A DNA stretch of 64,000 nucleotides from an uncultured Hyphomicrobiales bacterium (GTDB taxonomy: Bacteria > Bacteroidota > Ignavibacteria > Kapaibacteriales > UBA2268). The translations under genes were made by a program, and so were the position numbers. This document shows positions 2,779 to 31,102 of this stretch, piece after piece (within the stretch, counting starts at the first letter, position 1; each line of letters opens with the position of its first letter). The stretch covers positions 550 through 64,549 of the forward strand of contig CAZEMR010000004.1 in assembly GCA_964513465.1 (NCBI GenBank), in the 5' to 3' direction. Below the pieces are notes generated by a model. That model saw only the letters and a program-made list of their open reading frames with translations. It ran no database searches and was not told the DNA's origin.

Positions 2779-5700
2779 TTATTTAATCAGCACAACTTCC
2801 TGGGTCATTGTGTAGCTGCCTGTGCGGAGTATGATGATATACATACCCGAGGGCAGATCACTGCCGGAAAGCTGGAAGCTATGTGTGCCTGCCGAATAGG
2901 TGGCACCGTCGATAAGGCGCATCATTCTCTGGCCGGCCTGGTTGAGTACGTCGACTGTGACGCTCTGAGTAACCGGGATGGTGAAGGAGAGTTCTGCGAC
3001 TTCGCTGAACGGGTTCGGTACCGGTTCGTCGAAGATATAGCCGAGTTTGTGGAGGTCTTCCACTCCGACTTTACCGTCGATCGAGAACATACCGCTGCGG
3101 CTGTATTCCATCTGGGGATCGTTGTTCCAGATAGCGCGGACGATAGCTTCGTCTGTCTTATGCTCAGGAACAGCCCATCCGAAGGATTTAACTGCTGCGG
3201 GTATGTCTTTGCTGATTGACTGCCATGTCTGGCCGCCGTCTGCGCTCCACTGGAGGTCGAATCTATCGACATTGGATTTTGTCCAGCGGATTGCTTTTTC
3301 CTTGCCGCTATTGAGCACTTCGCCTGCCTGCGGATGTGTAATTGTAACATCGCCTGCAAGGATTCTGAACTGCGACGAGGTGGTGAGCACTTCGTTGGTA
3401 GTGGCGTTAACCATGCGGACTGCTGCCTGCTTGGTGTTAATCGCCGGTACTGTCCATTTGGTCTGGCCTTCTTTGGCATTGACTATTCCGGTTACGGGCG
3501 TCCATGCGTCAAGTCCGTTTTCGCTGAATTCGAAGCGGACGCTGACTGCTTCGTCATACGACCAGATGATGTGGTCGTCGGTGGCGCCTTTGTATACCGG
3601 ATCGCCAGCGCTCGGGCGTGTAATTTCGACAGGTGCGGGCTCGAGTACGAATGTGGCATCGCTGCGATCGATTTCGAGGTTGCCCTCTGCATCAACCATG
3701 CGAACAAGGCATTCGGTCGAGGTGACCTGCGGTGTTACCCAGCGGTAGCTTCTGGAGTTGATATCAACCGGATTAGGATTGATTCTGTCCCAGGTCTTGC
3801 CTGCGTCGAGCGAGAACTCAAGATAGACATTGCCGCTGACTGTGCCATTGGTGGCCCACTGAATTGTATTGGATTTGCCTGCTCTCCAGGTTTCTCCGCC
3901 GTTCGGAGCTGTGATGTTTGCATCTTTGCCCCAGTATGCCGGAGGAATATCGAGGAATGTACCATCGCCGGTTACAATGCGGCCGTCGACTGTATGGACG
4001 GATTCATTATACCAGTTGAATGTGTACATTTCCTGCGGGCGGATAACTTTGAATACCAGAGTACCGATATATGTATAATCGCTGGGTACGTTCTGGCCGG
4101 GGCCTTCGGTATAAGCGTCATACATAATTTCGATAGTACGGATGTTCGGGATAGGATCGACCGTATTCTTTGTCGGGCCGGTAGCTAATTTGCCATAGCC
4201 AAGGTCATTGTATCCTTCGCCGTCGTTGTCGAAAATGACCGTCTGCTCTTTGATCAGAGATTCGAATTTGAGCGATGCGGGATCATAATCGATTGCAAAT
4301 GTGGCATTTGCCAGTGCGAAAAGTTCGCCTGTGTTTTTGATGTAGAATGGTATTTCGATTGTATTGTTGTTGCGATTGACGCGTGTTCTTGCGCTGACTT
4401 CATAGCTTACATTGCTGAGCACTACGTCTTTTGCGTATTTCTCCACTCTGAGTCCGTCGTGGTGATATTCGCCGCCATTTGCGAGATAATTCTCCGCGCC
4501 GCGGATGAACATTTCGGAATATTCCGGATATTCGGGATGGACAACCGTCATCGGGTCGTCGGAGACGAGATAATCCAGAATGGGCGATTCTTCGACTGTT
4601 CCGTCGTCGAATTTATTGATGACGCTCAGATTGGTAAGCGACGAAACCTTGTTGGTGTTTCTGTCGACGATGGTACGGTCGTCGGCGTCGATGTTGCCGT
4701 CGCCTGTAACATCGCTGCTCATATTGCTGCCGCCAATGTCTGCGCGAACCTGTGCGCGGTCGGCTGCGTTAATCTGACCGTCTTTGTAAACATCGCCGCC
4801 GACCATTGCTGCTATAGCATTGGCGCTTCCGCCAGCCTGACCATTATTGAAGATCAGACCTGTGGCTGCGTATGCGGTCTGAGCGGGATCGGTTTCTGCG
4901 TTGCCCCATGCGGTGTATTTAGTGCCGTATGAAGGCGGAGTTGTCGATGCTTCTGCGTCTGTGATTATGTTGTCTACCACGCCGTCCCAGGTCTGGAAAT
5001 CCCAGCCGGATTCGACAACCCAGGTGCTGACATCGTCGCCCGAGTAGTAGAACGGAGCCGCATAAGCGGACATAATCGGCAGGTGGTTCAGATGCTCGAC
5101 CACTACAAAGTAATCATTATCTGAAATTTCTGTGAATACGAACGGAACGTTTGCGAATTCAGATCCGTCTGCGCCGCGGCCAACGCCTGCGGTCGGGTCG
5201 AGAGCTGTTGCATCGTTCGAATAGCCATTTGTGGATTCTGCTTCGGCAATGAGAACACCAGGCGTATTGGCATTGTCGCTGTAAAGCTTGATGCGGATAC
5301 CATTGTTGTCATATGTCGAGCCGATATCGTTCTGGATGGCTCCGGCCAGTCCTGTGTGATAGCCCTCGAGCAGTACGCGAACAGTAAAGTTACTCGGAGG
5401 AGTAATATTGAACAGGTCGCTTTCTGTTCTGAGTGTGGGCATATCGCCATTGGTGCCGTTTTCGTATTCAAATGTTGTGCCGTTGATTGTGGAGCGGCCC
5501 TGCAGACGCAGACGACCATTGGTCATAGTTGCTGCAATCTGGCCGTAGTCATTATATACACCGTCGTTGTTCAGATCCGGATCCGCTGCGGAAACATCCA
5601 GGCGTGCGCTGAACTGCGATTTGCTGGAGGTGCCGGGGAATTCGAAACTGTTATTGCCGGTGGGCAGAGTCATCGCATTCGGGTATGCCACCGAATATGC

Positions 5701-8700
5701 TTCACTTGTTACTGCCTGATAGGGCTGAATGATCATACCGCCGCCGCCAAGTACCGAATACTCGAGGTCTGCGTGTGTGGCGCCGCCGCTGCCATTAATA
5801 AATGTAGAAGCTGCATCATTACGGTTATAATCAAATCCTACCCAGCGTACCTGAAGGTCGTCTTCGGTATTAGGCACGGCCTGTTCGTATTCGGGCTTGA
5901 TAAGCTTAAGCAGCGGTTTGGTTGCTACATAAGAGAGTGTTCCGTTTTTCACGCGGCCGACAAGATCGTCGTCCACCGGATAAACCGGAATGCTGTTCTT
6001 GATACCGCTGTTTACGAATGCGCCGCCGTTCATCGAATATGCTGCAACCAGATATTTGGAATAATTGGTGCCGCCGAGGAGCGCCAGTTCGTCTGCACGA
6101 ATAGTAAGCGCGCCCTGGATGAACTCGGTCATTTCAGTAGGCTCGTTGCCGGTCGATTTCATGTTTGCCGGGTTGTTGTTCCAGAAACGTACTTCGCGGA
6201 GCTCGCCAACGAAGCCATGGCTGTCTGTACCCTCTTCATCGCTCGGCTCATAGCCGATGTACGAAGGATAATTGTTCTGCACGTCAGGAGCAACTCCTGT
6301 GGTCGATGAGAATTCCTGGCCGGTCTGAACTTCGCCGTCGATATAGAATCTGACGTCGTTGTCGTTGCCGTTACCAAGATTGAACCATACGCCGACGTGA
6401 GTCCAGACGGAGTCCATGCGCAGCAGGTTCGGGCGTTTCAGCGAATAGTCAGCATCGCTGGATGCGGTTGTGATGCCGGCCGGGCTGCCAACTGCGAACT
6501 GGATGGTTCCGTCGGCAAGCAGACGCAATGCATAATGCAGGCTGTCGCCGGTCATTGTGCTGTCTTTTTTGCTGACGATTGCGAAGTATTCCTCATCTTC
6601 CGTGGGGAATCTGTAGGGCTTAATCCATGCTTCGATGAAGCCGGTAGCGCCGGAAAGATTCAGCTCGGTATTCGAAGGAACTTCGACAAACGCACCGCCG
6701 GTGTTCTTAAGAGCGAAGTAAGGGGCAACTGTGAAATCGCCCGACATGCTCTCGATATCTTCCTGGCCGCGATCGGTCGTACCGGATACCTTCAGCTTAA
6801 CTGTTTTGGAATAATTAGTGCCGATCGGGACAAGACCCTGAAGGTCATCATCCTGGCCGGTGATAGTTACGTTGTTATAGGGTTCCCAAGTGGCATAGCC
6901 ATCTTCGATCTCGACGTTTGTCAGAGCAACAGAGGGAACCTGATTGTCGTTTGCGTCATAGTAGTTAGCTCCGCCGTCACGGCTGAACTGTACCATAATG
7001 TCGTCCGTATCCGGAGCTGTGCTGCCAAGGCCATAGCCTGCCCAGCGAACTTCGTAAACCACGTCGTCAACATTGCGCACACCCTCTCCGCCGATGGGCG
7101 AAGTAATGGTGATATGCGAGCGATCGGGGCGGTAGTTAATATTATTATTAACTGCCGATGCGCTGAGAGACGGGTCTTCGAAATAATTCAGCACTGTTGC
7201 GCCGTTCTGGTAATCAGTATCGTCGGCAACATCCGTGCGGATACCCTGGAATGTATAATAAAGTTCCAGGCCTGCGCGTTCATCGCCGTTAACCGGATTA
7301 ATGGATGCAACGTCTCCAGCCGGATCGTAGACGCCGCCGATATTCTGGCGAATTTCGTCCTGGCTGAGCGCATAGCGCCATACGGTTGCTTCTTTGATGC
7401 CTGCATGCAGGTAGTCGTCTTCTTCAATTTCGTCATTGGGATTGACACCGATCCAGATAGGATGGTTGGTCACCAGAAGACGAGGATCGACTGCGTAGTT
7501 ATTTGTATATTCGTCAACCATTTCGCCGTTTACATAGAGCGATACCACATTGTTCGAAACTGTGGCTGCGATATGCACCCAGTTGTTCGCATGAGCATCC
7601 TGGATTGGCGAAGCATCGCTGGTAGTCGAGAGCGCTGTCTGCGACTGTACCATGCCGATATAACCGCTCGGGCCGCGGCCTTCATTTTCGCGAGCACGGA
7701 ATGCCGGATACTGACCATCGGCCAGATAGAGCATCCATGCGCCTTCGGCTGCGCCTTCAGCAGGGCCGGCCGAATTAGCAACGATTGCCGGTTCGCCGTC
7801 TTCGTTGACGGAGTTCAGATTCACCCAAGCCATTACCGTAAGCTGGGTTGCCTGGCTGTAGTTGCTTGCAGTTCTGAAATATGAACTGGTGCCGTCGAGC
7901 TGTACAAAGAATAAGCGGCCAAGCACGAATGTTTCGTCGCTCTCATCTCTGCGGCAGTCGTCGGTATAGGCCGCACGAGTTGTGATTGCTTCGTCGGTGT
8001 CGGTTTCTGCAATCTGGCTGATCCGTATTTTACCATTTTCTGATCTGTAGGGGAAGTTTTCGCTGTTTTCCCAGATCACACGGATGACGCCGGAGTAATT
8101 AACGATCAGAGGATCGCCGTCGCCGTCAGTGATGTAGTATTCGCTAGTGGAACTGACAACGTCAATCTCGCCGGAAACATAATTGGCAACGTTAGCGCCC
8201 ATGGCTGTTTCGTCGTTGACTGTTTCGGCTACTCGGCCGATTGTGCTCCAGGAGCTTCCGCCATTGAGCGAATACTCGAGGAGATAAGCCACACTGCTTT
8301 CGCCATAATCATATGTACCGGTATTGATAATTCCACTTCTTTCGAAGTATACCGGATAGCCCTGATTCGGCGAAATCGAAGCATATGCCGGATCGGGATA
8401 TCTGTTGATTGCCTGAGTACCGCCATTGGGATTCAGGATTGTAATGCCGCGGATAACAAAGTCGTCGGGATCTACAAAGGATACCTGGTCGGTTATGTTA
8501 TTTCCGTCGGCGTCTGTAATTTCAATAGTGCTTACAAAATCAGCAGTATTAAAAGCAATTTCTGTCAGATCGGTGCAAGTAAGATTTGCATGATCCTGAA
8601 TATCGAATTTCAGCATACCGGCAAACGAACCTCTGCCGGATGACGACGGCTGATAGCCAATGCCGCCCATGTCAAGATTAACGTCTATCTGATATGTATA

Positions 8701-9117
8701 TACATGGTTGCCGCCCTGTTCGGCATCCGCAGGGGATGCGCCGAGCGCAGATGTATAGCCATAAGTCACATCGCTGAAAGGCGATGTAAAGGTAGTGTAT
8801 GCGTCTGTCTGGTTGATGTCGACATCCACGGAGTCCGTGCTTTCGTAGGCCTGATTGCCCTCGGGCGCAAGGAAGTCCGTATTATAGACAACAGAGATTG
8901 AAGCATTACCAAGATTGGGAGCATCGGTCGTCAGCGATTTGATCCAGAATTCCACGCCGATCTGGTCGCCCAAACGGCGCTGACGTGTGGATATTTCGTA
9001 GACGTCCTGGGCGTAAAGCTCTCCTGCCAGAAGGAAGAATCCTACCGCAAACCAGAGCAGCTGCCCCCACGAAAACTTTAATCCATGTTTTCTTGGTTTG
9101 ACAATTTTGGTTATCAT
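2779..9117 (-). CDS. giant (2112 aa) secreted cell-surface protein, T9SS cargo
   Basis: N-terminal signal peptide. Shared N-terminal domain with the 14056..21024 paralog. Two LamG/ConA-like modules (approx aa 395-590 and 800-985), BNR-like 'GGxxW/SxDxGxTW' Ig repeats, dockerin-like duplicated Ca-binding segment (aa ~1438-1495). Type-A CTD '...PVPNPFSEVAELSFTIP...GMYIIILRTGSYTMTQEVVLIK'. Confidence 0.85.
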   Translation of the reverse strand: MITKIVKPRKHGLKFSWGQLLWFAVGFFLLAGELYAQDVYEISTRQRRLGDQIGVEFWIKSLTTDAPNLGNASISVVYNTDFLAPEGNQAYESTDSVDVDINQTDAYTTFTSPFSDVTYGYTSALGASPADAEQGGNHVYTYQIDVNLDMGGIGYQPSSSGRGSFAGMLKFDIQDHANLTCTDLTEIAFNTADFVSTIEITDADGNNITDQVSFVDPDDFVIRGITILNPNGGTQAINRYPDPAYASISPNQGYPVYFERSGIINTGTYDYGESSVAYLLEYSLNGGSSWSTIGRVAETVNDETAMGANVANYVSGEIDVVSSTSEYYITDGDGDPLIVNYSGVIRVIWENSENFPYRSENGKIRISQIAETDTDEAITTRAAYTDDCRRDESDETFVLGRLFFVQLDGTSSYFRTASNYSQATQLTVMAWVNLNSVNEDGEPAIVANSAGPAEGAAEGAWMLYLADGQYPAFRARENEGRGPSGYIGMVQSQTALSTTSDASPIQDAHANNWVHIAATVSNNVVSLYVNGEMVDEYTNNYAVDPRLLVTNHPIWIGVNPNDEIEEDDYLHAGIKEATVWRYALSQDEIRQNIGGVYDPAGDVASINPVNGDERAGLELYYTFQGIRTDVADDTDYQNGATVLNYFEDPSLSASAVNNNINYRPDRSHITITSPIGGEGVRNVDDVVYEVRWAGYGLGSTAPDTDDIMVQFSRDGGANYYDANDNQVPSVALTNVEIEDGYATWEPYNNVTITGQDDDLQGLVPIGTNYSKTVKLKVSGTTDRGQEDIESMSGDFTVAPYFALKNTGGAFVEVPSNTELNLSGATGFIEAWIKPYRFPTEDEEYFAIVSKKDSTMTGDSLHYALRLLADGTIQFAVGSPAGITTASSDADYSLKRPNLLRMDSVWTHVGVWFNLGNGNDNDVRFYIDGEVQTGQEFSSTTGVAPDVQNNYPSYIGYEPSDEEGTDSHGFVGELREVRFWNNNPANMKSTGNEPTEMTEFIQGALTIRADELALLGGTNYSKYLVAAYSMNGGAFVNSGIKNSIPVYPVDDDLVGRVKNGTLSYVATKPLLKLIKPEYEQAVPNTEDDLQVRWVGFDYNRNDAASTFINGSGGATHADLEYSVLGGGGMIIQPYQAVTSEAYSVAYPNAMTLPTGNNSFEFPGTSSKSQFSARLDVSAADPDLNNDGVYNDYGQIAATMTNGRLRLQGRSTINGTTFEYENGTNGDMPTLRTESDLFNITPPSNFTVRVLLEGYHTGLAGAIQNDIGSTYDNNGIRIKLYSDNANTPGVLIAEAESTNGYSNDATALDPTAGVGRGADGSEFANVPFVFTEISDNDYFVVVEHLNHLPIMSAYAAPFYYSGDDVSTWVVESGWDFQTWDGVVDNIITDAEASTTPPSYGTKYTAWGNAETDPAQTAYAATGLIFNNGQAGGSANAIAAMVGGDVYKDGQINAADRAQVRADIGGSNMSSDVTGDGNIDADDRTIVDRNTNKVSSLTNLSVINKFDDGTVEESPILDYLVSDDPMTVVHPEYPEYSEMFIRGAENYLANGGEYHHDGLRVEKYAKDVVLSNVSYEVSARTRVNRNNNTIEIPFYIKNTGELFALANATFAIDYDPASLKFESLIKEQTVIFDNDGEGYNDLGYGKLATGPTKNTVDPIPNIRTIEIMYDAYTEGPGQNVPSDYTYIGTLVFKVIRPQEMYTFNWYNESVHTVDGRIVTGDGTFLDIPPAYWGKDANITAPNGGETWRAGKSNTIQWATNGTVSGNVYLEFSLDAGKTWDRINPNPVDINSRSYRWVTPQVTSTECLVRMVDAEGNLEIDRSDATFVLEPAPVEITRPSAGDPVYKGATDDHIIWSYDEAVSVRFEFSENGLDAWTPVTGIVNAKEGQTKWTVPAINTKQAAVRMVNATTNEVLTTSSQFRILAGDVTITHPQAGEVLNSGKEKAIRWTKSNVDRFDLQWSADGGQTWQSISKDIPAAVKSFGWAVPEHKTDEAIVRAIWNNDPQMEYSRSGMFSIDGKVGVEDLHKLGYIFDEPVPNPFSEVAELSFTIPVTQSVTVDVLNQAGQRMMRLIDGATYSAGTHSFQLSGSDLPSGMYIIILRTGSYTMTQEVVLIK
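4633..4806 (-). other. dockerin type-I-like duplicated Ca-binding module inside the 2112-aa protein
   Basis: 'GGDVYKDGQINAADRAQVRADIGGSNMSSDVTGDGNIDADDRTIVDRNTNK'. Two 'DxxxDGxIxxxD' loops each followed by a helix, matching the cohesin-binding dockerin consensus (DVNxDGxVNxxD...). Confidence 0.6.
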
Positions 9118-9177: not shown

Positions 9178-12100
9178 TTACGGAGTAACGCTGAATATTT
9201 CTGTGCTCATCGTGGTGATCAGCAGAGTATAATTTTCGGTATCATTTGCGCCATCCACACCATAAACGCGTACCGTATAGGTGCCTGCATCCAGGTAGTT
9301 CACAACGAAAGCCTCGTTGTTCGTGCCCGGGCGGATTGCTCTGCGGATACGGTTTCCGTCCGAATCATAGAATTCAATGTTATAATTCTTGGGAAGCGTA
9401 TAGATTCTGCCTCTGACATTTGGCGAAGCATTGGTAATCGTAAAGCTAAACCAGTCTTCGTCGGTCGAGCTGCTGATGCGGCCTTTGACCGGTGTGTTAG
9501 TGCCGATCGGGGCTGCTGTCAGACGTGTATCATTCGAGCCGAATTCGGCGTCATCGTCGGTTGTACCGGTTGTGGTGGTCAGCTGGTTGAAGTTGCTCAC
9601 GCCGGGATCGGTAAGGTAATTTTCGTTGCCTGCCGAGCCGGTGTATGCATATACGCTGAAATAGTAATCGGTCGAGGGTGCGAGGCCTGTGACCTTGACG
9701 CTTGTACCGGTGCCTTTATAAAGCACAACAGCATCACCGACGCTGGAGCCCGCTCCATAAATCGAGTTGGCTACATAAGTCGTACCATCCGAGGGATGCG
9801 TATCGATTGTCGATACTGCGCGTGCGATAAGCACTACCGGGTCTGCGGTTGCCGGAGCAGTCCACGATACGTCGACTGTTGTCGCGGCAACGTTAGAGAA
9901 TGCAATGCCGGAGGCCTGATCGGTCGGGTCGTCGCCGATTAAGGAAATCTGCTCGCTTACGCCAGCCTGGACTGCGTCGCCACTCGGGTCGGTGGTGGCA
10001 GTGGTGGCCAAAAGCTGGATTCCGGATTCACCGCTTGCATTCGGGATCGAAAGATTGCTGAATATAACTGAATTCGAGCCGATTTCAATATCGCTCTCGC
10101 GCGTTGCCGGTGCGTCCAGTGCAGTTCCGAGATGAGTCGATACGTTTACGGTATAAGCTTTTGTAGCGGTTACCGGATCGCCGTTCTCGTCCTGAAGCTG
10201 GATCGTAACGCTGAAGTTATTACCGCTGGTTGCGGGGTTTGGTGTAACTTCGGTGAATACCAGTTTATATACATCAGATGTGAGCGCTTCGGCAGCGGAG
10301 GTTGAAGTGGCTTCGTCGGCTGTAAATGCGGCCCATGTGCCTTCAAGTTCCGATGCGCTTACCGCAAAGTCGCTCATTGCAAGTTGGCGATCGACTGGTA
10401 CTGTATATGATGCATAATCATAATACGAATCCCACTCGGTGCCATCCCATCTGGCTGCAAATGTCTTGTTTGCGGCCGGAGGAGTGTCCCCGTCGTATGC
10501 GGTGTTCCACTCCAGGCGGACTTTCATGTCGTCGCTAGGAGCTGTGCCCTCGGGCGTTACTGTCCATGCAATCTGCACTGCGTTTTCGGGATCGCCTGCG
10601 CGGCCGTATGTCGGGTTGATTATTTCGCTGGATACTTTGACTACCTGCGAGCTGCCTGCGGTCTCGAATTGCATCGAAATCGGGCGATAGGTGGTTGCTG
10701 GGCCGCCGCCAATCGGGAAGGAAGTCAGAGCATTTGTAACCGTTCTCTTCATATTACCGATAATATGATCGGTAGTTGTAAAGTCCGGTAGTGTGGCCGA
10801 AGGGCCAAAAGTCAGTGTATTGTCGTCGCCTGTGTAGAGATTCTGCTCTGTGCCGCCGGTATAAGATAGCGTGCCCAGTATGGTCAGATCGCTGCCGAGA
10901 GTTACCTCTTCATTGAGCTCTACGTCATATGCGGTGTTGTCTGTAAAGAAGTTTGCGGGAATTTCGGTGTTATCGTCAAAGTCCACTTTCGAGAGTGTCC
11001 CTGCGGTGACCGATCCTGAAATAAGCTGGATCGAACCGGCGAGATCGAGTGTGTACTGATCGATATCGAAATACTGCACGCCTGTGTTGAGGGTGAAGAT
11101 ACCAACAACCGTAAGGTCGTCCGCAAGTGTTTCCGGACGATTTATCTGGAGATTTTGAATAGATCCTCCTGTGAAATATATATTGGAGAAATCTTCTACT
11201 GTGCCGGTACCGCTAAGGATTAATTTGCTATCACCATCCGTGGCGTCCATTTTGTTAGCTGCGTCGCCTTGGCTAATGTCGCCATAGACTTCAAGCTCAG
11301 AAGCATCCAAATCAAGGGTTGCATTCAGAGTAAGATCGCCGTTAACTGTCAGGTTGCCATCAAGTCCATCGGCCGATGTTACCAGCAAATTGTATAGAGT
11401 CGGATCGCTGTCGGGAGTGAAAAGAGCATCTTCGAAGTCTCCACTGACGTGGGTCCCGAATATCTCATATGTACCTGCGTTACCATATATAGTTCCGTTT
11501 GTATAACTTACTGTGCCTCCAACAGAGAGGGTGTTTGTGCCGAGATCGACAACACCATCAGTCAACGTAAGCGTACCGCCGTCGAATACTTTGACGTCGA
11601 TTCCAAGCGCAACATCGCTCGAAGTGCCGGCAGTGTTATTAACAGTCAAAATCCCAATCATGACTGCGTTATTACCTGCATTGCCATCGCCGGTGATGTT
11701 CTGCACGCCTGTGCCGTCGAGCTCCACGGTGCCAGTATTGTCGAATGTCGAGAACGATCCGCTGGAACCGTTGACCGTAATGTCGCCGGAAATATTAATC
11801 TGGTCGCCGAGTGTGACGGCTACAATGACATCCTCTGCCGTAATGCTGTGTGGCATCAGATTGCCATCTGTTCCGGCTGTGAATGTAGCGCCACTGCCAT
11901 TTGTACACGTGATTATGCCATCATCGGCATTGAAAGATGCATTTAACTGGCAATCAAAATATGTACCTGCGAGCGTGAAGTCGCTTGTGGTTGTTACATC
12001 GTTGCCTGCTGTTCCTTCAATTACTACATCATATAGCTGAAGAGTGCCTGTATTGGTAATCGATTTGGTATCTGCGCCAGAGAAAGTCACTGTGCCGGAA

Positions 12101-13581
12101 GTCTGGGTAAGGCTTCCCTCAACACTGATTTCGCCGTCATCCGTTCCGTCGCCAGTAATTGTCATGCTGCTTGCGGTCGTTACCTGCGAGCCGCTGGGAA
12201 CAGTCAGTGTGTAGAAATTCAGATTACCGTTATTGATTATTTGTCTTTCATTCGTGTTCTGCATCGTAATATTGCTCGACTGAGCCGGATCGCCGGTGAA
12301 TGTAGTGCTGGCATCCACCTGAAGATGTCCGCCGATAGTAACATCATATGCCGAGACCGAAGTAGTTGCATTTTCTACATGGACATGATTCAGAGCAATC
12401 GAACCCAGGCTGCCTTTGATCAGGTCAACGTCGGTGCCCCACAAAAAGAATGTGTTGCTGGTTTGCGAGAACGAACCATTTGCGGTCATATCATTAGAAA
12501 GAGTCATCGAGGAAGTACTTACGATCGAAGCCCCGCTCGAAATTGTCATATCATAGAACGAAAGCGGCCCTGTGCCGTTCCGGGTAATAGATTTTGCTGT
12601 CGAGTTCGTAAATGTAATCGTGCCGGCTGCGGGCACGAAACGTCCCGATCCGGTTTTGCTAAGGTCTCCTGTGATAATACAGCTTTCGCCTCCGGATATA
12701 GGGGTAATGTCATAATTCGCGCCGAGCTTCAGATTATAGAAGCTCAGGGTGCCCATATTATTATAACCTGCAACTGCAGCAGCAGGAGGTGCAATAGTCA
12801 CCGTTCCGTCGCTTGCGATAAAGCTGTCGCCGGAATTAACCGTAAGGCGTTCGCGAACTGTTATATTCGAAGATGTTGTAACATCGCCGTCGGCTTCGAG
12901 GTTGACGAATTCTACGCTACCTGTGGAAGGCACGGTGATTGCATGAGTTTCGCCGGCTACTGCTTTGTAGAATACAAAAGTGCCGGATGTATTTGTTTCA
13001 GCAGCGAAAGCGCTGGTACCGGTAAGCGTAAGGTCGCCAGTGGAATACATGCGGGTATCGCCTACATACTGAACTGCTTTGCCGGTTATGGTGATGTCGT
13101 TGAAGTTCAGACCCCTACTTAAGCTATAAGTAGACGATCCATTGGAGATTTCAATCTCGGCATCATCCAAAAAGTTAACATTCAGACGACCGCTGCCATT
13201 GCGGCCCAGAAATGCGTCGTTGTCGTCTTCAGAATCGTTCAGTGTTACATTGCCGTATATATTGAGCGTAACAGTGTCGCCGTCCTGAGGGCGGATTATG
13301 GCCGCTCCACCGCCGTCGTTGTCGTTCCAGCCGATTTTAAGCGAAAGGCATTCGCGGGTTGCGCCGGCGTCCACTTCGCAAGTTTCACCATCAGCAATAA
13401 CAGCATCAACCGATGCTGTCGGTACGCCGTCGCTCCAGTTGCCGGCAGTACTCCATAAGTTGTCGCCGATGGTATTGTTAAAGGTACTTGAAGATTGAGC
13501 CATCGCATTCTGCCCGACCGCAAAAGCCAGAAAGAAGGCGAAAAACGCTGCAATCTTGATTAACCGATTTTTGTTTTTCAT
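9178..13581 (-). CDS. 1467-aa secreted protein with beta-helix-like repeats, FN3 and C-terminal PPC domain
   Basis: Signal peptide 'MKNKNRLIKIAAFFAFFLAFAVGQNAMAQ'. About 1100 aa of degenerate Gly/Thr/Asn-rich ~20-25-aa repeats (parallel beta-helix/adhesin-like). FN3-like module ('...VDVSWTAP...STDYYFSVYAYTGS'). C-terminal pre-peptidase C-terminal (PPC) domain ('DDDAEFGSNDT...DEDWFSF...YNIEFYDSDGN...GTYTVRVYG'). No type-A CTD. Confidence 0.8.
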   Translation of the reverse strand: MKNKNRLIKIAAFFAFFLAFAVGQNAMAQSSSTFNNTIGDNLWSTAGNWSDGVPTASVDAVIADGETCEVDAGATRECLSLKIGWNDNDGGGAAIIRPQDGDTVTLNIYGNVTLNDSEDDNDAFLGRNGSGRLNVNFLDDAEIEISNGSSTYSLSRGLNFNDITITGKAVQYVGDTRMYSTGDLTLTGTSAFAAETNTSGTFVFYKAVAGETHAITVPSTGSVEFVNLEADGDVTTSSNITVRERLTVNSGDSFIASDGTVTIAPPAAAVAGYNNMGTLSFYNLKLGANYDITPISGGESCIITGDLSKTGSGRFVPAAGTITFTNSTAKSITRNGTGPLSFYDMTISSGASIVSTSSMTLSNDMTANGSFSQTSNTFFLWGTDVDLIKGSLGSIALNHVHVENATTSVSAYDVTIGGHLQVDASTTFTGDPAQSSNITMQNTNERQIINNGNLNFYTLTVPSGSQVTTASSMTITGDGTDDGEISVEGSLTQTSGTVTFSGADTKSITNTGTLQLYDVVIEGTAGNDVTTTSDFTLAGTYFDCQLNASFNADDGIITCTNGSGATFTAGTDGNLMPHSITAEDVIVAVTLGDQINISGDITVNGSSGSFSTFDNTGTVELDGTGVQNITGDGNAGNNAVMIGILTVNNTAGTSSDVALGIDVKVFDGGTLTLTDGVVDLGTNTLSVGGTVSYTNGTIYGNAGTYEIFGTHVSGDFEDALFTPDSDPTLYNLLVTSADGLDGNLTVNGDLTLNATLDLDASELEVYGDISQGDAANKMDATDGDSKLILSGTGTVEDFSNIYFTGGSIQNLQINRPETLADDLTVVGIFTLNTGVQYFDIDQYTLDLAGSIQLISGSVTAGTLSKVDFDDNTEIPANFFTDNTAYDVELNEEVTLGSDLTILGTLSYTGGTEQNLYTGDDNTLTFGPSATLPDFTTTDHIIGNMKRTVTNALTSFPIGGGPATTYRPISMQFETAGSSQVVKVSSEIINPTYGRAGDPENAVQIAWTVTPEGTAPSDDMKVRLEWNTAYDGDTPPAANKTFAARWDGTEWDSYYDYASYTVPVDRQLAMSDFAVSASELEGTWAAFTADEATSTSAAEALTSDVYKLVFTEVTPNPATSGNNFSVTIQLQDENGDPVTATKAYTVNVSTHLGTALDAPATRESDIEIGSNSVIFSNLSIPNASGESGIQLLATTATTDPSGDAVQAGVSEQISLIGDDPTDQASGIAFSNVAATTVDVSWTAPATADPVVLIARAVSTIDTHPSDGTTYVANSIYGAGSSVGDAVVLYKGTGTSVKVTGLAPSTDYYFSVYAYTGSAGNENYLTDPGVSNFNQLTTTTGTTDDDAEFGSNDTRLTAAPIGTNTPVKGRISSSTDEDWFSFTITNASPNVRGRIYTLPKNYNIEFYDSDGNRIRRAIRPGTNNEAFVVNYLDAGTYTVRVYGVDGANDTENYTLLITTMSTEIFSVTP

Positions 13582-14055: not shown

Positions 14056-17000
14056 TCATTTAATTATATTTATCTGCCTGATCAAACGGAAGTTCTCCGA
14101 TTCGATATACAGATAATAGCTGCCCGAAGAAATCCCCTTCAGCGGGATTACCACTGTGTGGTTGCCAGCAGGGAATACTTCTTCGCCAAGCTGCTTCAAA
14201 GCAGCGCCGCTGATATCCATAAGCCGGATATTCAGCTTTGCCGCTCCGGGTATCGCAAATCGCAATTTTGCGTTATCGCCGCCCGCCGGATTCGGATACA
14301 CTTCTCCGAACTCGTACCCAGCGGGAAGTATGTCTTCGACGCTGCCGATCATAAATGTAACCGCGTCATATTCCATTTCGGGATCGCCGTTCCATATAAA
14401 TCGGATTTTTGCCGTTCCGGTTATTTCGGATGGAGTCCAGTCTGCGTATCCCAATATCGGATTTACTTCGCGATACAGAGTCTCCCAGTGGTTTCCGCCG
14501 CTATAGCTTACCTGGATGTCGAATGCTTCGGCGTTTAGCGCCTGCCATCTTATGCGGGTCTTTACGTCAACTTTCGGGCTGTCGTGCGATCTGGGATAGG
14601 TTATGTCTACCCGTCCGTTCAGAATTTTGAACCGGGAGCTGGTTGCGACAACTTCCCCGCTGGATTCCTCGATCATCCTCACCATTGCGGATTTCGTGGT
14701 TACTTCAGGTATGCGCCAGTTAGCTCTTTTCATTTCGGCATTATATGTGCCAGGTATTCTTTGCCAGTCCGATCCGTCGGCCGAGAATTCGAAGTAGACC
14801 CGATCGATACCCTGTGCAGTCCACTGGATTTCTCCGACTTTCCCTCCGTAATATAGCTGATCACCGGAGGAGGGTCGGATAATTTGAGCAAAAACGGAGT
14901 ATATCGAGAATTTAGCGTCGCTCGTATCCAGCGCAACGCGGCTTCCGCGGTCGATTATGCGCACAAGGCATTCTGTTGCATTGGTTATTGGCACGTTCCA
15001 TTTATATTTAAGCGATGCCGAGGATACCGGTTCGGAATTTATGCTGTTCCAGCTTGCTCCGCCATTGGTGGTATATTCCAGATCGACTTCTTCGTCCGCA
15101 TTGGTGGTCCACTCTACCAGATACTCGCTGCCGGCAATAATACCTTCGCCGCCGTCGGGGCGCACGATTTCGGCATCGTAGAGCACAATCGGAGCCATCT
15201 GCAGAAAATCACCATATGGAGTGGCAAGCACGCTGTCCGTGGTATGAACAGATGTGGCCTCGTGCCATTCGAAGCTTACCAGCCCGGTGGCTTTCCGAAG
15301 ATTGAACTGCAGAGTGCCGAGATAGGTTTCTTCGTTGGGTACTGCGATCCCGCCGGGATTGGCAAAAGCATCGTAGTCGATTTCGATTGTCCGCATATCC
15401 GGGATTGCATTTTTCATGCCTTCGTCCGGCGCCGAAGTCAGCGCGTTATATCCGGCTGTCGTATCGGTAAAGATCACTTCGCCGGTGCCCGAAAGCTTCG
15501 CGAAATCCATCATCGATGAATTATATTTTACTGCGAAGGTGCAATTGGCCAGGCCGAACTGCCTTCCTTTATTTTTAATATAAAAATGAAGATCGACCTT
15601 GCTGCCATTAACTTCCGGCACAGTCCACACTTCATAATCAAGAGGTCCGGCCATCGGACGGTCGCCCGATATTTTGGCATCGGCATTATTCATCGCCGAT
15701 TCCGCAGCGCGGTTGAATCTTGCGCTTAGCCCGGGATTTTCGGGAGCCACTGCAATATTCACATCCGGCGGGGCAATCACATAATTGCTCTGAGGGGCAT
15801 TATTTTTGCCTGTACGGGTCGGGAAGGATATGTCATATAATGAAGATACCTTGCCATGGTTGCGATCGACAATCGTGCGATCGTCTGCGTTGACTAGTCC
15901 GTCGCCGGTGACGTCGCTGCCGATAATCGATGTGCCTGCGTCTACGCGTACGCGAACGCGGTCGGCGGCGTTGATCATTCCGTCGCGCACTATATCTCCA
16001 CCGACCAATGCCGGCATCGCCGAGGCAGAACCGCCTGCAACGCCATTATTGAACACAAGGCCTGTGGTGGAATACCCCACCTTGGTCGATGTGGCAATTG
16101 CATTGCCATATGCTGTGAAATAATTCCCCGACCATGGATTCGTAGTCGCCGAGGGCAGCACATTGTCGTCGGTGCCGTTCCAGCTTTCGAAGTCCCAGCC
16201 GGATTCGATCGGCCAGGTAGAGCGATTATCGCCAACGTACTGGAATGGAGCGGAAAATCTCGACATTACCGGCATGTGGTTGATATGCTCGACCACTACC
16301 CAATAATTCCCATCGGTAATTTCAGTAAACACAAAATTGACATTTCCGAATCTCATGTTCCCGGCATTGCGGTTGGTCGGGTCGCGTTCGTCGTAGCCCT
16401 GTGTCGATTCTGCCGAATCTATCAGAGCGCCGATTCCGCCCGAATTATCCCGATATAATTTAATTCTCAGTCCACCTTCGTCAAAGCTGGTGCCAATATT
16501 TCTGATCTGGTTGCCTGCGACTACGCCGTTGTGGTAGCCCTCGAGCAATACACGAACGGTAAAGTTACTCGCCGGCGTTACGGTAAACAGCGGGCCCTCG
16601 CTTTGAATAGTATTTTGTTCGCCATTGATTGTATATTTTGCCGTCAGGCGGAATCTCGCATTTGTGAGCGCGGCCGCCAGCGGACCCTGGTCGTTGAAGC
16701 TGCCGTCATCATTTTCGTCGGGATCGGCTATCGAAGCATTCACCTGCGAGGCGAAATACTTCGAACTTGTGCCGCCCGAGTATAAATAGCTGGAATTTGT
16801 CGGCAGCGACATCGATTCCTGCGTATTGCCCTGCCAGTAGCGGCCGCCGAGGTACTGATACGGCTGGATCACTTTGCCACCGCCGCCACGGATAGAAAAT
16901 TCGAGCGAAGGCGGGGTTTCCTGGTTGGCGCCAACGTTGAATTCCTGGCCATTATAATTGAAGCCTATCCAGCGCACGCGGACGTCTGTCGCGGTATTGG

Positions 17001-20000
17001 TCACTCTCTCTTTGAATGCGGGCTCAACCAGTTTGACGTAGGGCTCGGCCGGGACGTATCTGAGATCGTTTCCGTAATGGCGGACAATCGAATTCGTGGT
17101 GGGATAATACCCCACGGCGCGATTATATCCATTTTTGATAAATGATCCGCCATTGAACGAATACGCTGCGGCAAGATTTGCTTTGCTTGAAGTAAGCAGA
17201 CTATCGGTCGAAACCGACTGCGCGCCCTGCACGAACAGAGTCAGATCCGTGGGCTCGGTGCCCGATGCCGACACATTATTCGGCAGTCCGTTCCATAGCC
17301 TTACTTCCCGGATTTCGCCTATGAAATTACCGTTGCCGTTGTCGCTGGTTACTATATTCTGCACCGGCGCCGAAGCTGAACCGTCCTGATTCGATATATT
17401 AACGTCGGTCTCGCTCTGAAGCTGTGTTACATTTGTCAGATTTACATCAATATTCATTGGTGCGGTTTCGTCGAATGCCGCGCTGCCAAGAGCCAGATTC
17501 AGATCGTATGCATAAAGCATAATCGATTGCGGCTGGCTGAGAGACCCATTAGTATTGAACACCAGATTGTCGCTCATCACGCTGACATCGGCCGTATTGC
17601 CGGCGGCGGCATCGAGCGTGAGTCCGGATTGGGGATTAGTCGAATCGGCAATCACAAATGCAAGGTTCTTCGGAGTAGCCGCATCGAAGTCCTGAGCGCC
17701 GATTGCGGTATTAATATCCGAAGCCTCGACTTCAATCCGGAATGGGCTGCTGATCACTCCATTATTAAATGTTATAATATTCTCGCTGATCGTATTCCCG
17801 TCAATATTAATCTGAAGTGTATATTCATCCGGATCGGCATTGCGGGTGAATACCAGCTCGAGGTCGCGCTCATCGTTCTGCATATCCTGAATCGTTCCGT
17901 CGATAGTATATGCATCCCCCTCTGCCGCATTCGCATCGAGCGTACCGGTCAGGCTGACCTGTTCGGTCTGGCGCGCGATATCATTACCGTCAATTGTCTG
18001 GGTAAAATTGTATTCATTTAACTGATCTGTTTTAACAAAACTAAGCTCGAGCGTGTGCTCGTTGCCAGCCGCGTCGTAGATCTGAGCGCTGGTGGTTCGC
18101 TCGAAGTCCTCCGGGGTTCCCGAATATATATTCCCGCTGATTGTAACATTTTGCGTCTGCTGGGGGATGGTATCCCATGTCACCATCGTATAGCCGGGAT
18201 TATATCCGATATAAGTAGGATATTCATTCAGGAAATTGACCGAGAGATCCTCCCCAAGCTGTGTGGCAATGCTGTCCGCCCGCTGCACGGTGCCATCTAT
18301 ATAGAAACGGACTTCCGACTGGCCGAGGCCGCTGTTCAGGAATACATACGCGGCTACATGAGTCCAGGCCGAATCCAGCGATACGGAATTAGGCCGGACA
18401 ATCGGCTGGTCGATATCGCTTGTCGCGGTGCGCTCATTGCCCGTTGCATCCATCAGCTTTAGCTGGAGCTGGCCCGTAGGCAACAGATTGAATTCGTAAT
18501 GAAGCTCATTGGCATTGCTGTCCCTTTTCGCAAGAATCGGGAAATATCCTTCTTCTTCGGTGGGGAACCGGTATGGCCTGATCCATCCCTCGATGAATGC
18601 CACATTGCTGGTTATATTCATGCCTTCTTCGCCGTCTATGGCGAGGATATCGCCTTCTTCTATCGGCAGCGCAAAATACGGCGCCACCCAGAAATCATCG
18701 GATATATATGTAAGGTTGCTCTGAGTAAATGCCGATGTTCCGCGCATCCTCATGCTCACCTCGCGGGCATAAGGATTAATCGTGCGCAGATTGGCAGATG
18801 CATTATTATTTTCGTAGGGCTCCCATTGGGCAGTCCCGGTTTCGACGTCAACCGCAAGCGCGCCGCCAAGCTCCGAGCCTGCGGGATTGCGTGCGTAATT
18901 CCAGCTCGAGCCGCCGTCTATCGAATATTCGATAGCCAGATCGGCTGTCCCGGTGGTCGAAATATCGCCAAGACCGTAGGATACCCAGCGAATATCGAAT
19001 ACTTTGCCATTGATATTTGATACGCCGACTCCGCCGGTGGGTGCCGTCAGCCGGATGTGAGGCTGATCGGGACGATAGGTGGTGGCCAGATCGTCTGCCA
19101 CTCCGCCGCTGTAAAAATCGAGCGCCTGAGCGCCGTTCTGATAAGTCGAATTGCTGGCCTCATCGTCTTTTTCGCCTTCGAATGTATAATATAATTCAAG
19201 GCCGCGCCGAAGATCGCCATATGTCGATACATTCGTCGGATCGGAAACCCCGGCCACCCGGTTGCGGATTTCGTCCTGGGTGAGCGCTGTGCGCCATACC
19301 CGCACTCCTTTGATTCCGGCATGGAGATAATCCGATGCGTCGATCGAACCATTGGGATTGACGCCAATCCATACCGGATGCACGGTGGTCATCATACGGA
19401 TATCGGTAGTGCTGTCGTTAACCCGGCGATCGACCAGCTCGCCATTTACATATAAAGATATTTCATTATTATTAACTGTGGCGGTAAGATGCACCCAATT
19501 GCCCGAGTGATCCTGATCGAGCGGCTCGGCGTCCGATTCGGCCATCAGCGAATCTAGGCGATACGCCACCACCTTGCCGAGGTAGCCGTTTTCGCCGCGG
19601 GCCTGAATTTCGCGGACACGGAAGGCCGGATAGCGGCCGTCCTCCAGATAAAGCATCCAGGCGCCCTCGTTAGAATTATAGACGGGGGCTGCGCCCGGAC
19701 CGCCGCTGGACACCACAATTCCCGGCTCCGATCCATAATCCTGATAGCTGTTCAGGTTGAGCCATGTCTCGACCGTTAACTGAGTGGAATTGCTGAAATT
19801 TGTTTCGGTTTTCAAGTATTCGGAAGTACCGTTGAGCTGCATAAAAAACAGGCGTCCCAAAACGAATTTGGCGTCGTTCATATCAATTACGCTGCTTTTC
19901 TGACGCGAGGTAATCGAAGTATTAGTCGATCCCTGCAGCCTGATAACCCTCAGTCGGGCCTGTTCGCTGCGCTCGGTAAAGAATGGATTTTTCGACCAGA

Positions 20001-31025: not shown

Positions 31026-31102
31026 GTTTTTGAATATTTTGTAATTATTTATAAATTCCGGGAATTTGTGAAATGAATTCATTCACCAATCCCGGAGTTC
31101 TC

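Follow-up and report, generated by a model that had tools for sequence, protein, structure and literature searches.

Cohesin-dockerin pairs rank with the strongest non-covalent links between proteins and are familiar chiefly as the connectors that hold cellulosomes together; to our knowledge, their role outside cellulosomes is mostly unknown. Cohesin and dockerin can also share one polypeptide, for example in proteins of Archaeoglobus fulgidus. Non-cellulosomal cohesin and dockerin modules form a recognised class (Peer et al. 2009, as cited in PMC6487960), and Amy4 of the Ruminococcus bromii amylosome carries a mutually recognising cohesin and dockerin in one polypeptide (PMC4611034; bioRxiv 10.1101/2025.03.31.646359). 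In the Cloacimonadota, dockerin-bearing enzymes (GH18, GH57 and peptidases) have been inferred for 'Ca. Stygibacter' together with a separate, CTD-bearing scaffoldin with tandem cohesins and CBMs (Williams et al. 2021, PMC8542988). Here, we describe two giant paralogous proteins, A and B, encoded in a stretch of 64,000 nucleotides of DNA (the window; positions in Table 1), in which a dockerin is followed in the same chain by a cohesin, and we consider it fairly likely that the two modules form a non-cellulosomal, self-docking clasp, probably in cis.

An NCBI MAG protein, P0001 of Candidatus Kapaibacterium sp., has the same sequence as protein A (100% identity). From N- to C-terminus, the order of protein A, drawn in part from Pfam and NCBIfam domain matches, is signal peptide, N-terminal cohesin-like module, a region of Asp-box Ig-like and LamG domains, β-sandwich, dockerin, linker, cohesin, Ig-like Asp-box repeats and T9SS CTD, and the architecture of protein B is that of A with an inserted FlgE_D2-like region (Pfam). 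Hydrophobic N-terminal signal sequences were recognised by eye in both proteins, with the cleavage site in A predicted between LYA and QD, directly before the N-terminal cohesin-like module. The T9SS CTDs noted in a preliminary description of this DNA are present (type A), at a borderline score in B, and PF18962 is annotated on most homologues. Pfam detected no catalytic or CBM domains in A or B, the only matches being LamG, Asp-box/Ig-like, FlgE_D2 and CTD, with weak matches to dockerin and cohesin. Judged by sequence, A and B appear to be T9SS-exported, non-enzymatic, lectin- and Ig-rich, adhesin-like surface proteins. The middle gene of the locus matched neither the family dockerin HMM nor the family cohesin HMM; two other Kapabacteria contigs (those of homologues P0003 and P0005) share the arrangement of a B-type gene, a gene for a 1460-1508-aa protein and an A-type gene. 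The family is lineage-restricted, with 78 clusters among 1.84 billion representatives, and its type of dockerin-cohesin cassette is almost exclusive to this single giant-protein family. A scan of GTDB genomes with one protein as query yielded nothing beyond a Planctomycetota locus and a SusC-type receptor of Cyclobacterium, and the single 'DLNGDGNIDADDRT' loop of the latter is not a dockerin.

Table 1. Proteins A and B, their modules and the gene between them, with positions in the 64,000-nucleotide window
Feature	Residues	Window positions	Strand	Basis or description
Protein A (2112 aa)		2779..9117	minus	ORF and translation
A, N-terminal cohesin-like module	37-225	8443..9009	minus	hhalign and PDB profile
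A, LamG (concanavalin-like lectin) domain	408-589	7351..7896	minus	Pfam Laminin_G_3, E 2.7e-34, two stretches
A, second LamG domain	about 863-978	6184..6531	minus	Pfam Laminin_G_2, E 4e-4
A, conserved β-sandwich upstream of dockerin	1241-1377	4987..5397	minus	AF2 strands and conservation
A, dockerin	1438-1491	4645..4806	minus	Pfam, PDB profile, AF2 and Foldseek
A, linker	1492-1567	4417..4644	minus	AF2 secondary structure and pLDDT
A, C-terminal cohesin, proposed dockerin partner	1568-1729	3931..4416	minus	Foldseek, Pfam, covariation
A, T9SS type A C-terminal sorting domain	2034-2112	2782..3018	minus	TIGR04183 30.4 bits (cut-off 23); Pfam Por_Secre_tail 26.1 bits
Middle gene of the three-gene locus (1467 aa)		9178..13581	minus	Repetitive N-terminal region, fn3 (Pfam), weak CTD (weak TIGR04183 match)
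Protein B (2322 aa)		14056..21024	minus	Paralogue of A, 42% identical
B, N-terminal cohesin-like module	34-217	20374..20925	minus	Aligns with the A N-terminal module; in the N-terminal-module alignment used for hhalign
B, dockerin	1673-1726	15847..16008	minus	Family dockerin HMM 110 bits; among the 73 alignment members matched to PF00404 (72 match)
B, C-terminal cohesin	about 1789-1950	15175..15660	minus	Family cohesin HMM 200 bits; aligns with the A cohesin
B, T9SS C-terminal domain, borderline	2242-2322	14059..14301	minus	TIGR04183 22.6 bits (cut-off 23); Pfam 21.4 bits

The dockerin segments of A and B are genuine dockerins by sequence and predicted fold. They read GGDVYKDGQINAADRAQVRADIGGSNMSSDVTGDGNIDADDRTIVDRN in A and GGDIVRDGMINAADRVRVRVDAGTSIIGSDVTGDGLVNADDRTIVDRN in B, with Pfam matches at residues 1441-1486 (window 4660..4797) and 1676-1721 (window 15862..15999), respectively; they are encoded on the minus strand, and a plus-strand translation of the positions first given for them is nonsense. 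In A, Ca loop 1 (1442-1453) is followed by helix 1 (1451-1459) and Ca loop 2 (1469-1480) by helix 2 (1478-1486), a tandem loop-helix duplication whose loops start 27 residues apart and whose helices are both present in both AF2 models. The isolated 80-aa module of A matches Pfam PF00404 (Dockerin_1) with 33.2 bits and E 5.9e-8 (gathering threshold 22.9 bits), and 72 of 73 family modules match it as well (best E 7e-12). Against the PDB, the family dockerin profile gave 36 matches, almost all dockerins, of which the top 25 were all dockerin-bearing chains (best E 1.5e-5); phmmer with the raw 317-aa region had no PDB matches, dockerins being found only with the family profile. Modelled alone, the A dockerin had a pLDDT of 74 (core 82-86), and the top 24 PDB matches of this AF2 model in Foldseek were all dockerins, led by 2y3n_B (E 6.8e-4, target-normalised TM 0.79, rmsd 1.7 Å over 55 columns). 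The six-frame translation contains four instances of the loop pattern D-x-x-x-[DN]-G-x-[IVL]-[DNS]-x-x-D, all of them at the A and B dockerins, against a mean of 0.02 in 100 shuffles.

The module is found in 120/120 full-length homologues retrieved, and no other part of the protein is as conserved (mean pairwise identity 0.59, versus 0.41-0.47 for most other regions). Taking loop positions 1, 3, 5, 9 and 12 as the canonical side-chain Ca2+ ligands, loop 2 has the full set in 102 of the 120 sequences and a degenerate form in about 13; loop 1 retains ligands at positions 1, 5, 9 and 12, with a non-ligand at position 3 in 86/120, including A (Tyr) and B (Val). Dependence on Ca2+ is uncertain because loop 1 mostly lacks its position-3 ligand and loop 2 is sometimes degenerate. 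The dockerin identity proposed in the preliminary description is borne out by both the profile and the structure searches, and the duplicated segment is real, with a core of about 46-54 aa in place of the ~55 aa given for it. Its consensus start, DV(Y/V), does not fit B, which starts DIV, and the 'type-I-like' label is not established, as type II X-dockerins and the Cel48 dockerin of B. cellulosolvens are among the best matches in sequence and structure.

The C-terminal module, which begins about 80 residues downstream of the dockerin, is by its predicted structure a true cohesin of the nine-stranded jelly-roll fold. The top 50 PDB matches of the 498-residue AF2 model in Foldseek were all cohesins (E 3.6e-8 to 3.8e-5, target-normalised TM up to 0.79), with 5k39_A the best (E 3.6e-8). 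Pfam Cohesin (PF00963) scored 19.2 bits on this module in A (threshold 24.1) and had no match in B, 19 of 35 family C-terminal modules matched it at E<=1 (best E 4.8e-6), and the family profile returned only cohesins from the PDB, but at E 0.14. The N-terminal module is, as read from its sequence profile, homologous to the C-terminal cohesin and cohesin-like: hhalign aligned the two with a probability of 97.4% (E 1.2e-11), and its family profile returned only type II cohesins from the PDB (1tyj_A and 2y3n_A, E 0.04-0.05). The two cohesin-type modules of each protein are separated by about 1300 residues and are thus not in tandem.

AF2 modelling of A residues 1238-1735, from β-sandwich to cohesin, gave a pLDDT of 89 and a pTM of 0.90, a value that could also arise from packing other than dockerin on cohesin, docking being read from the confidence values. 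The prediction suggests that β-sandwich, dockerin, linker and cohesin fold as one rigid unit, within which the β-sandwich strands have high pLDDT and the dockerin reaches about 97, versus about 85 modelled alone. The β-sandwich (motif VVVEHLNHLP...ESGWDFQTW) lies where an X-module would sit and ranks second in conservation (mean pairwise identity 0.53); it had no Pfam match and no significant PDB sequence match, X-modules included. AF2 gives the linker a β-hairpin, a helix of 16 residues and, at 1554-1567, a disordered loop; with a mean pairwise identity of 0.19 it is the least conserved part of the protein.

Covariation was scored by MI-APC on the 120 full-length homologues, a small set (Neff about 98). 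When all 2112 residues are considered, the nine columns most strongly coupled to the dockerin belong to the C-terminal cohesin, a module with about 8% of the eligible columns, and the nine dockerin pairs above 0.3 all involve this cohesin, with zero in any other domain. The coupled dockerin residues (1478, 1479, 1482, 1485 and 1458) occupy positions 10, 11, 14 and 17 in the second repeat and position 17 in the first, and their partners (1645, 1663, 1665, 1668, 1706 and 1708) fall on two cohesin strands; the positions share one helix face, alternate along the cohesin strands, and form chemically matched pairs (I/V/L/F with L; T/D with H/Y). Positions 10, 11 and 17 are known specificity determinants of cellulosomal dockerins, and the two strands are presumably β5 and β8 of the dockerin-binding sheet (canonical order 8-3-6-5), numbered by strand order in the model. 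That the cassette was inherited or recombined as a block was rejected as the cause of this signal, since the main body of dockerin-cohesin scores shows no upward shift and the outliers are confined to 6 x 6 columns. Clade-defining columns elsewhere in the protein attain similar z-scores, and the switch between R/D/E and V/Y/D may reflect one or a few events. Of five genomes that encode both paralogues, four show joint changes in the dockerin and cohesin of the A type against a constant B-type code; in the genome studied here the A and B interface codes are nearly identical, and therefore the two could still cross-bind.

We propose that the dockerin docks on the downstream cohesin of its own chain, as the AF2 confidence values and the covariation suggest. 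The docking surface would run along the whole of helix 2, where the coupled positions of repeat 2 lie, and take in helix 1 at its C-terminal end (position 17 of repeat 1), with the helices touching the two cohesin strands, and the clasp and the upstream β-sandwich would together make one rigid superdomain. Proteins exported by the T9SS lose their CTD and are anchored in the outer membrane through the C-terminus so created; on this general picture, the clasp would stand in the cell-proximal third of a protein of ~2000 residues, with the N-terminal cohesin at the distal tip. More speculatively, the clasp might stiffen or mechanically lock the stalk, possibly in a Ca2+-dependent manner, and the distal cohesin may bind a separate partner. 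The very poor conservation of the linker between dockerin and cohesin speaks against a clasp.

The same contacts could be made between molecules, with the dockerin binding the C- or N-terminal cohesin of another chain (A-A, B-B or A-B) to build dimers, chains or a lattice on the T9SS-decorated surface. We regard such trans assembly, the reading nearest to the 'docking system' of the preliminary description, as possible and somewhat unlikely. Each protein has two cohesin-type modules and one dockerin, which leaves one cohesin unpaired; the paralogue pair is kept adjacent in several genomes, A and B of this window have almost one interface code, and the covariation is equally compatible with cis docking and with homotypic contacts between copies of one protein. 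The R. bromii Amy4 dockerin, which recognises its own cohesin and self-aggregates, provides a precedent (PMC4611034). However, the modules that AF2 modelled as one chain pack with confidence into a rigid body. In the four genomes mentioned above, the A-type dockerin follows the changes of the A-type cohesin, the B-type cohesin being constant, which argues against pairing of the A dockerin with the B cohesin, and covariation of the dockerin with the N-terminal cohesin is weak (maximum 0.296). An elaboration of the cis clasp, which we find unlikely, would make the cassette a calcium- or force-sensitive intramolecular latch that locks the stalk of a giant surface adhesin, the dockerin of which, once opened, would bind the distal N-terminal cohesin of neighbours and turn fibres into a cross-linked network.

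Non-cellulosomal dockerin-like modules reportedly have in general no known function (Peer et al. 2009, as cited in PMC6487960), and the dockerin of A and B might be purely structural, an X-Doc-like stabilising insert on the β-sandwich that possibly binds Ca2+ and binds neither cohesin, with the cohesin folds as Ig-like spacers or carbohydrate binders. Dockerin and β-sandwich, as the two most conserved regions, could form a unit, they share moderately coupled pairs (1458-1339 and 1491-1329, about 0.28-0.30), and loop 1 is non-canonical. The reading is nevertheless quite unlikely, given that the strongest and sole outlying dockerin couplings are with the C-terminal cohesin, at specificity positions 10, 11 and 17. 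Very improbable is a cellulosome-like recruitment, in which the A/B cohesins would act as scaffoldin for dockerin-bearing hydrolases from other parts of the genome and their own dockerin would attach to a further anchoring scaffoldin. The unpaired N-terminal cohesin at the presumed distal tip, a genome view of 64 kb, and the CTD-type cohesin scaffoldin and dockerin-bearing enzymes inferred in Cloacimonadota (PMC8542988) speak in its favour, but the 'cellulosome-like' label fails because A and B have no catalytic domain, CBM3 or tandem-cohesin scaffoldin (Pfam), and neither the window (family HMMs against all six-frame ORFs) nor 20 neighbouring proteins (Pfam), products of housekeeping genes and other T9SS cargo, yielded a further dockerin or cohesin. 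The cohesins are moreover not tandem repeats, the cassette is almost restricted to one protein family, and the dockerin couplings point to the protein's own chain. The cohesin partner that had been foreseen does exist, in the same polypeptide and accompanied by the N-terminal cohesin-like module, not among other T9SS cargo, and AF2 and covariation favour self-docking over the multi-protein assembly envisaged with it. That the segments are generic Ca-binding repeats (EF-hand, thrombospondin type 3 or FG-GAP-like) with a superficial dockerin likeness, a doubt which the preliminary description had itself raised, is effectively refuted: whole-protein Dockerin_1 scores are under the cut-off (16.3 bits in A and 10.9 bits in B) and a few members weakly match EF-hand_1 (9), EF-hand_5 (6) and FG-GAP (2), yet the isolated module scores over the cut-off, all but one of the 73 members match Dockerin_1, PDB profile and Foldseek searches rank dockerins first with calmodulins only at E > 4, and both loop-following helices are predicted.

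The locus offers a conserved natural case of adjacent dockerin and cohesin in one chain of a T9SS-anchored, non-enzymatic giant, and corrects the attractive but unsupported inference of a cellulosome-like system in Kapabacteria. The proposed clasp comes with a residue-level prediction, the five coupled dockerin residues against cohesin residues 1663, 1665, 1668, 1706 and 1708, and the natural 'code' variants within the family mean that specificity could be probed. If the clasp is real, intramolecular locking in surface proteins of Gram-negative bacteria would join the known uses of cohesin-dockerin pairs, and protein engineering would gain a new orthogonal pair; a switch from latch to network, if true, would be an undescribed use of the pairing on Gram-negative T9SS surfaces.

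Like known non-cellulosomal modules, those of A and B are cohesin and dockerin folds in proteins unrelated to cellulose degradation. The Foldseek matches of the A dockerin and cohesin include 2xdh, the A. fulgidus cohesin, and 2ozn and 2jh2, the cohesin-dockerin pair of the Clostridium perfringens toxin complex. Unlike these, A and B are 2100-2300-aa T9SS cargo of Kapabacteria (Bacteroidota), with a cassette predicted to be rigid, intrachain covariation and an extra cohesin at the mature N-terminus. Type II X-dockerin:cohesin complexes (C. thermocellum CipA XDoc-SdbA, PDB 2b59 and 3kcp, with R. flavefaciens and A. cellulolyticus analogues) resemble A and B in having a β-sandwich just upstream of the dockerin and dockerin helices on the cohesin sheet, as the predicted contact in A and B would have them, and X-dockerins are among the best matches (2b59_B at E 1.7e-5 by profile; 4u3s_B, 5g5d_B, 5m0y_B and 3kcp_A by Foldseek); in A and B, by contrast, the β-sandwich has no detectable sequence similarity to X-modules, the cohesin is in the same chain, and there is no scaffoldin anchoring. 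Amy4 likewise has cohesin and dockerin on one polypeptide, but is a Gram-positive enzyme whose self-recognition aggregates separate molecules, whereas A and B have no catalytic module, are anchored through a T9SS CTD, and carry adjacent modules predicted to dock in cis. Cloacimonadota, also of the FCB group, combine cohesin and dockerin modules with a conserved C-terminal surface-attachment domain, so that the pairing of dockerin and T9SS CTD, which does exist here as the preliminary description had it, is less unprecedented than was claimed (PMC8542988); A and B differ from the Cloacimonadota system in having no enzymes and in uniting dockerin and cohesin in one protein.

Two paralogous giant surface proteins, A and B, each carry a dockerin, which lies where the preliminary description had placed it and is encoded on the minus strand (feature locations in the table). 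In a six-frame translation of the window, the 12-residue loop pattern occurs four times, only at the A and B dockerin sites, against an average of 0.02 occurrences in shuffled sequence. Whole-protein Pfam scans score Dockerin_1 at 16.3 bits for A and 10.9 bits for B, both below the cut-off of 22.9, and by themselves would leave the segments with no significant dockerin HMM match; that reading is overturned by the isolated-module, profile and structural results. Scanned in isolation, the 80-aa dockerin module of A reaches 33.2 bits (E 5.9e-8), and Dockerin_1 is matched by 72 of the 73 homologous modules (best E 7e-12), whereas EF-hand_1, EF-hand_5 and FG-GAP are matched by only 9, 6 and 2 modules, each weakly. 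A PDB-wide search with the family dockerin profile returned 36 matches, nearly all dockerins, with dockerin-bearing chains filling the top 25 and ScaH Doc, B. cellulosolvens Cel48 Doc and CipA type II XDoc matching best (E 1.5e-5 to 4e-5). In the AF2 model of the module each of the two loops is followed by a helix, and Foldseek against PDB places dockerins in all top 24 matches (best 2y3n_B: E 6.8e-4, rmsd 1.7 Å, target-normalised TM 0.79), with calmodulins appearing only at E > 4. The modules in A and B are therefore dockerins; the label 'type I-like' is unestablished, because type II X-dockerins rank among the best matches. A weak match in the representative library, the unrelated 453-aa protein P0182, has six tandem Dockerin_1 modules (Pfam E 2.7e-53).

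Calcium ligands in loop 2 are canonical in 102 of 120 homologues, and loop 1 retains positions 1, 5, 9 and 12, with a non-ligand at position 3 in 86/120 and in both giants (Tyr in A, Val in B). Judged from residue identity, the ligand set appears canonical only in part, and Ca2+ binding itself is putative. One subgroup of homologues (P0028, P0029, P0039, P0040, P0043, P0046, P0047, P0049) has lost the loop 2 ligand pattern (e.g. SQVKGGSAVVNATDR) and still has the DR-x-IV-x-RN helix after the loop; Ca2+ binding at loop 2 seems dispensable in some lineages.

Features of the two giant proteins and of other genes in the window
Feature	Location	Strand	Details
Protein A	2779..9117	minus	2112 aa
Protein B	14056..21024	minus	2322 aa
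A dockerin	4660..4797	minus	GGDVYKDGQINAADRAQVRADIGGSNMSSDVTGDGNIDADDRTIVDRN; Pfam match, residues 1441-1486
B dockerin	15862..15999	minus	GGDIVRDGMINAADRVRVRVDAGTSIIGSDVTGDGLVNADDRTIVDRN; Pfam match, residues 1676-1721
β-sandwich, A	4987..5397	minus	residues 1241-1377; strongly conserved; motifs NFTVRVLLEGYH, VVVEHxNHLPVMS, ESGWDFQxW
N-terminal cohesin-like module, A	8443..9009	minus	residues 37-225; directly after predicted signal peptide
N-terminal cohesin-like module, B	20374..20925	minus	directly after predicted signal peptide
FlgE_D2-like insertion, B	17380..18120	minus	residues 969-1215 (~250 residues); Pfam FlgE_D2, E 1.2e-12
Protein between A and B	9178..13581	minus	1467 aa; fn3 domain, weak CTD
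LRR protein	27110..27955	minus	281 aa; leucine-rich repeats; amid housekeeping genes
T9SS cargo	30402..31025	plus	FlgD_ig-type CTD
T9SS cargo	31073..33211	plus	FlgD_ig-type CTD
Ribonucleotide reductase	34530..38084	minus	class II (B12-dependent), 1184 aa; C-terminal TSCPD domain
T9SS cargo	39959..43741	minus	1260 aa; legume-lectin, LamG, PKD-like, CTD domains

A candidate cohesin partner, of the kind the preliminary description expected, does exist, and it sits within the same polypeptide as the dockerin, not in a separate protein. Pfam gives a weak Cohesin match in A (19.2 bits) about 100 residues downstream of the dockerin; Cohesin is matched by 19 of 35 homologous segments (best E 4.8e-6), and the family cohesin profile finds only cohesins in PDB, as weak matches. 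With the model of the cassette (β-sandwich, dockerin, linker and this cohesin), all top 50 Foldseek matches are cohesins (5k39_A, E 3.6e-8; highest target-normalised TM 0.79, 6kgc_A). The N-terminal module is homologous to the C-terminal cohesin (hhalign 97.4%, E 1.2e-11), and its only PDB profile matches are two type II cohesins. It starts essentially at the first residue past the predicted cleavage site, with the consensus AQxYExTLNQRR, in which RR is invariant.

The domain order is signal peptide, cohesin, a LamG/Ig region, β-sandwich, dockerin, a linker of ~80 residues, cohesin, Ig repeats and CTD, with two LamG domains and several Asp-box Ig-like repeats (Pfam); the T9SS type A CTD scores 30.4 bits in A and a borderline 22.6 bits in B. 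Pfam found no catalytic or CBM domain in A or B. The conserved β-sandwich, an uncharacterised domain that is always immediately upstream of the dockerin, has no Pfam or PDB sequence match. The FlgE_D2 insertion, an odd occurrence of a flagellar hook FlgE D2 domain inside T9SS cargo, has no counterpart in A and is present in some B-type homologues (P0086, P0100, P0103). A has a 100% identical counterpart in a MAG of Candidatus Kapaibacterium, a genus placed in Bacteroidota (NCBI taxonomy), and its homologues of ~2000-2300 aa, which number at least 161, derive from metagenomes and from MAGs labelled Kapabacteria or Ignavibacteria. Among 1.84 billion representatives, the cassette is matched in no more than 78 clusters, almost all of them of proteins ~2000-2300 aa long. 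The order B-type, fn3 protein (~1460-1510 aa), A-type is conserved in two other Kapabacteria contigs (L001, L003), and this conserved place of the middle gene suggests a three-gene functional unit. In the window, the N-terminal region of the middle protein is repetitive, Gly/Thr/Asn-rich and, by eye, β-helix-like.

AF2 was run on A residues 1238-1735 (498 residues, three modules; 49-sequence alignment), giving a pLDDT of 89.1 and a pTM of 0.90, a value at which the prediction is confident on the relative placement of the modules in a construct of this size; dockerin pLDDT is ~85 when modelled alone and ~97 within the cassette. Covariation (MI-APC; 120 full-length homologues, Neff about 98; all 2112 residues) places all nine top-scoring partners of the dockerin columns within the C-terminal cohesin (~8% of eligible columns), in a small sample where phylogenetic hub columns elsewhere reach similar z-scores. 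Nine dockerin-cohesin pairs exceed 0.3, a level reached by none of the pairs between the dockerin and another domain, and they involve only six dockerin columns (1458, 1461, 1478, 1479, 1482, 1485) and six cohesin columns (1645, 1663, 1665, 1668, 1706, 1708; A numbering). Block co-inheritance of the cassette is disfavoured as the source, since the bulk of dockerin-cohesin scores is not elevated. One major switch in residues may have arisen in only a few events during evolution. Conservation of the linker is low (pairwise identity 0.19). In cellulosomal dockerins the classical specificity determinants are positions 10, 11, 17 and 18, where one helix dominates binding and the end of the other assists; the coupled sites here are positions 10, 11, 14 and 17 of repeat 2 (one helix face), position 17 of repeat 1, and residue 1461, which follows the latter by three residues and lies immediately beyond helix 1. 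Coupled cohesin positions alternate along two strands, which from strand order in the model we infer to be β5 and β8, both of the canonical 8-3-6-5 binding sheet. The residue pairs are chemically sensible: at 1479/1708, I/V/L/F occur with L and T/D with H/Y, and R1458 and D1485 pair with E1663, V and Y with D.

We lean towards the dockerin docking onto the downstream cohesin of its own chain, closing a clasp that, together with the conserved β-sandwich upstream, would form one rigid superdomain. Assembly in trans, homotypic or between A and B, is the less likely possibility; for the A-B form, five genomes with both paralogues keep the B-type code constant (R.ADTD /.EDASH) and the A-type dockerin and cohesin change jointly in four of them, which places the coupling inside one protein type and not between A dockerin and B cohesin. 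Of an enzyme complex such as the cellulosome-like system hinted at in the preliminary description we found no sign. Searches of A, B and the rest of the window yielded neither dockerin-bearing enzymes nor a tandem-cohesin scaffoldin, the features that define a cellulosome. Elsewhere in the window are housekeeping genes and further T9SS cargo, where family HMMs over six frames and Pfam on 20 neighbouring proteins detected no other cohesin or dockerin. Lectin-like surface proteins are abundant in the window, and the barrel of the ribonucleotide reductase is matched in two stretches, which could reflect an insertion.

Same-chain docking would not be a new principle, but it would make A and B a concrete example from nature, open to test, of a cohesin and a dockerin that dock on each other within a T9SS surface protein. 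Cohesin and dockerin modules outside cellulosomes already form a recognised class (Peer et al. 2009, as cited in PMC6487960), the dockerin of R. bromii Amy4 binds its own cohesin, leading to self-aggregation (PMC4611034; bioRxiv 10.1101/2025.03.31.646359), and dockerin-bearing enzymes with a CTD-bearing cohesin scaffoldin have been inferred in Cloacimonadota (Williams et al. 2021, PMC8542988). Unlike all three, A and B are giant, non-enzymatic LamG T9SS cargo with adjacent dockerin and cohesin predicted to self-dock, an extra distal cohesin, and a cassette restricted to one lineage-specific family.
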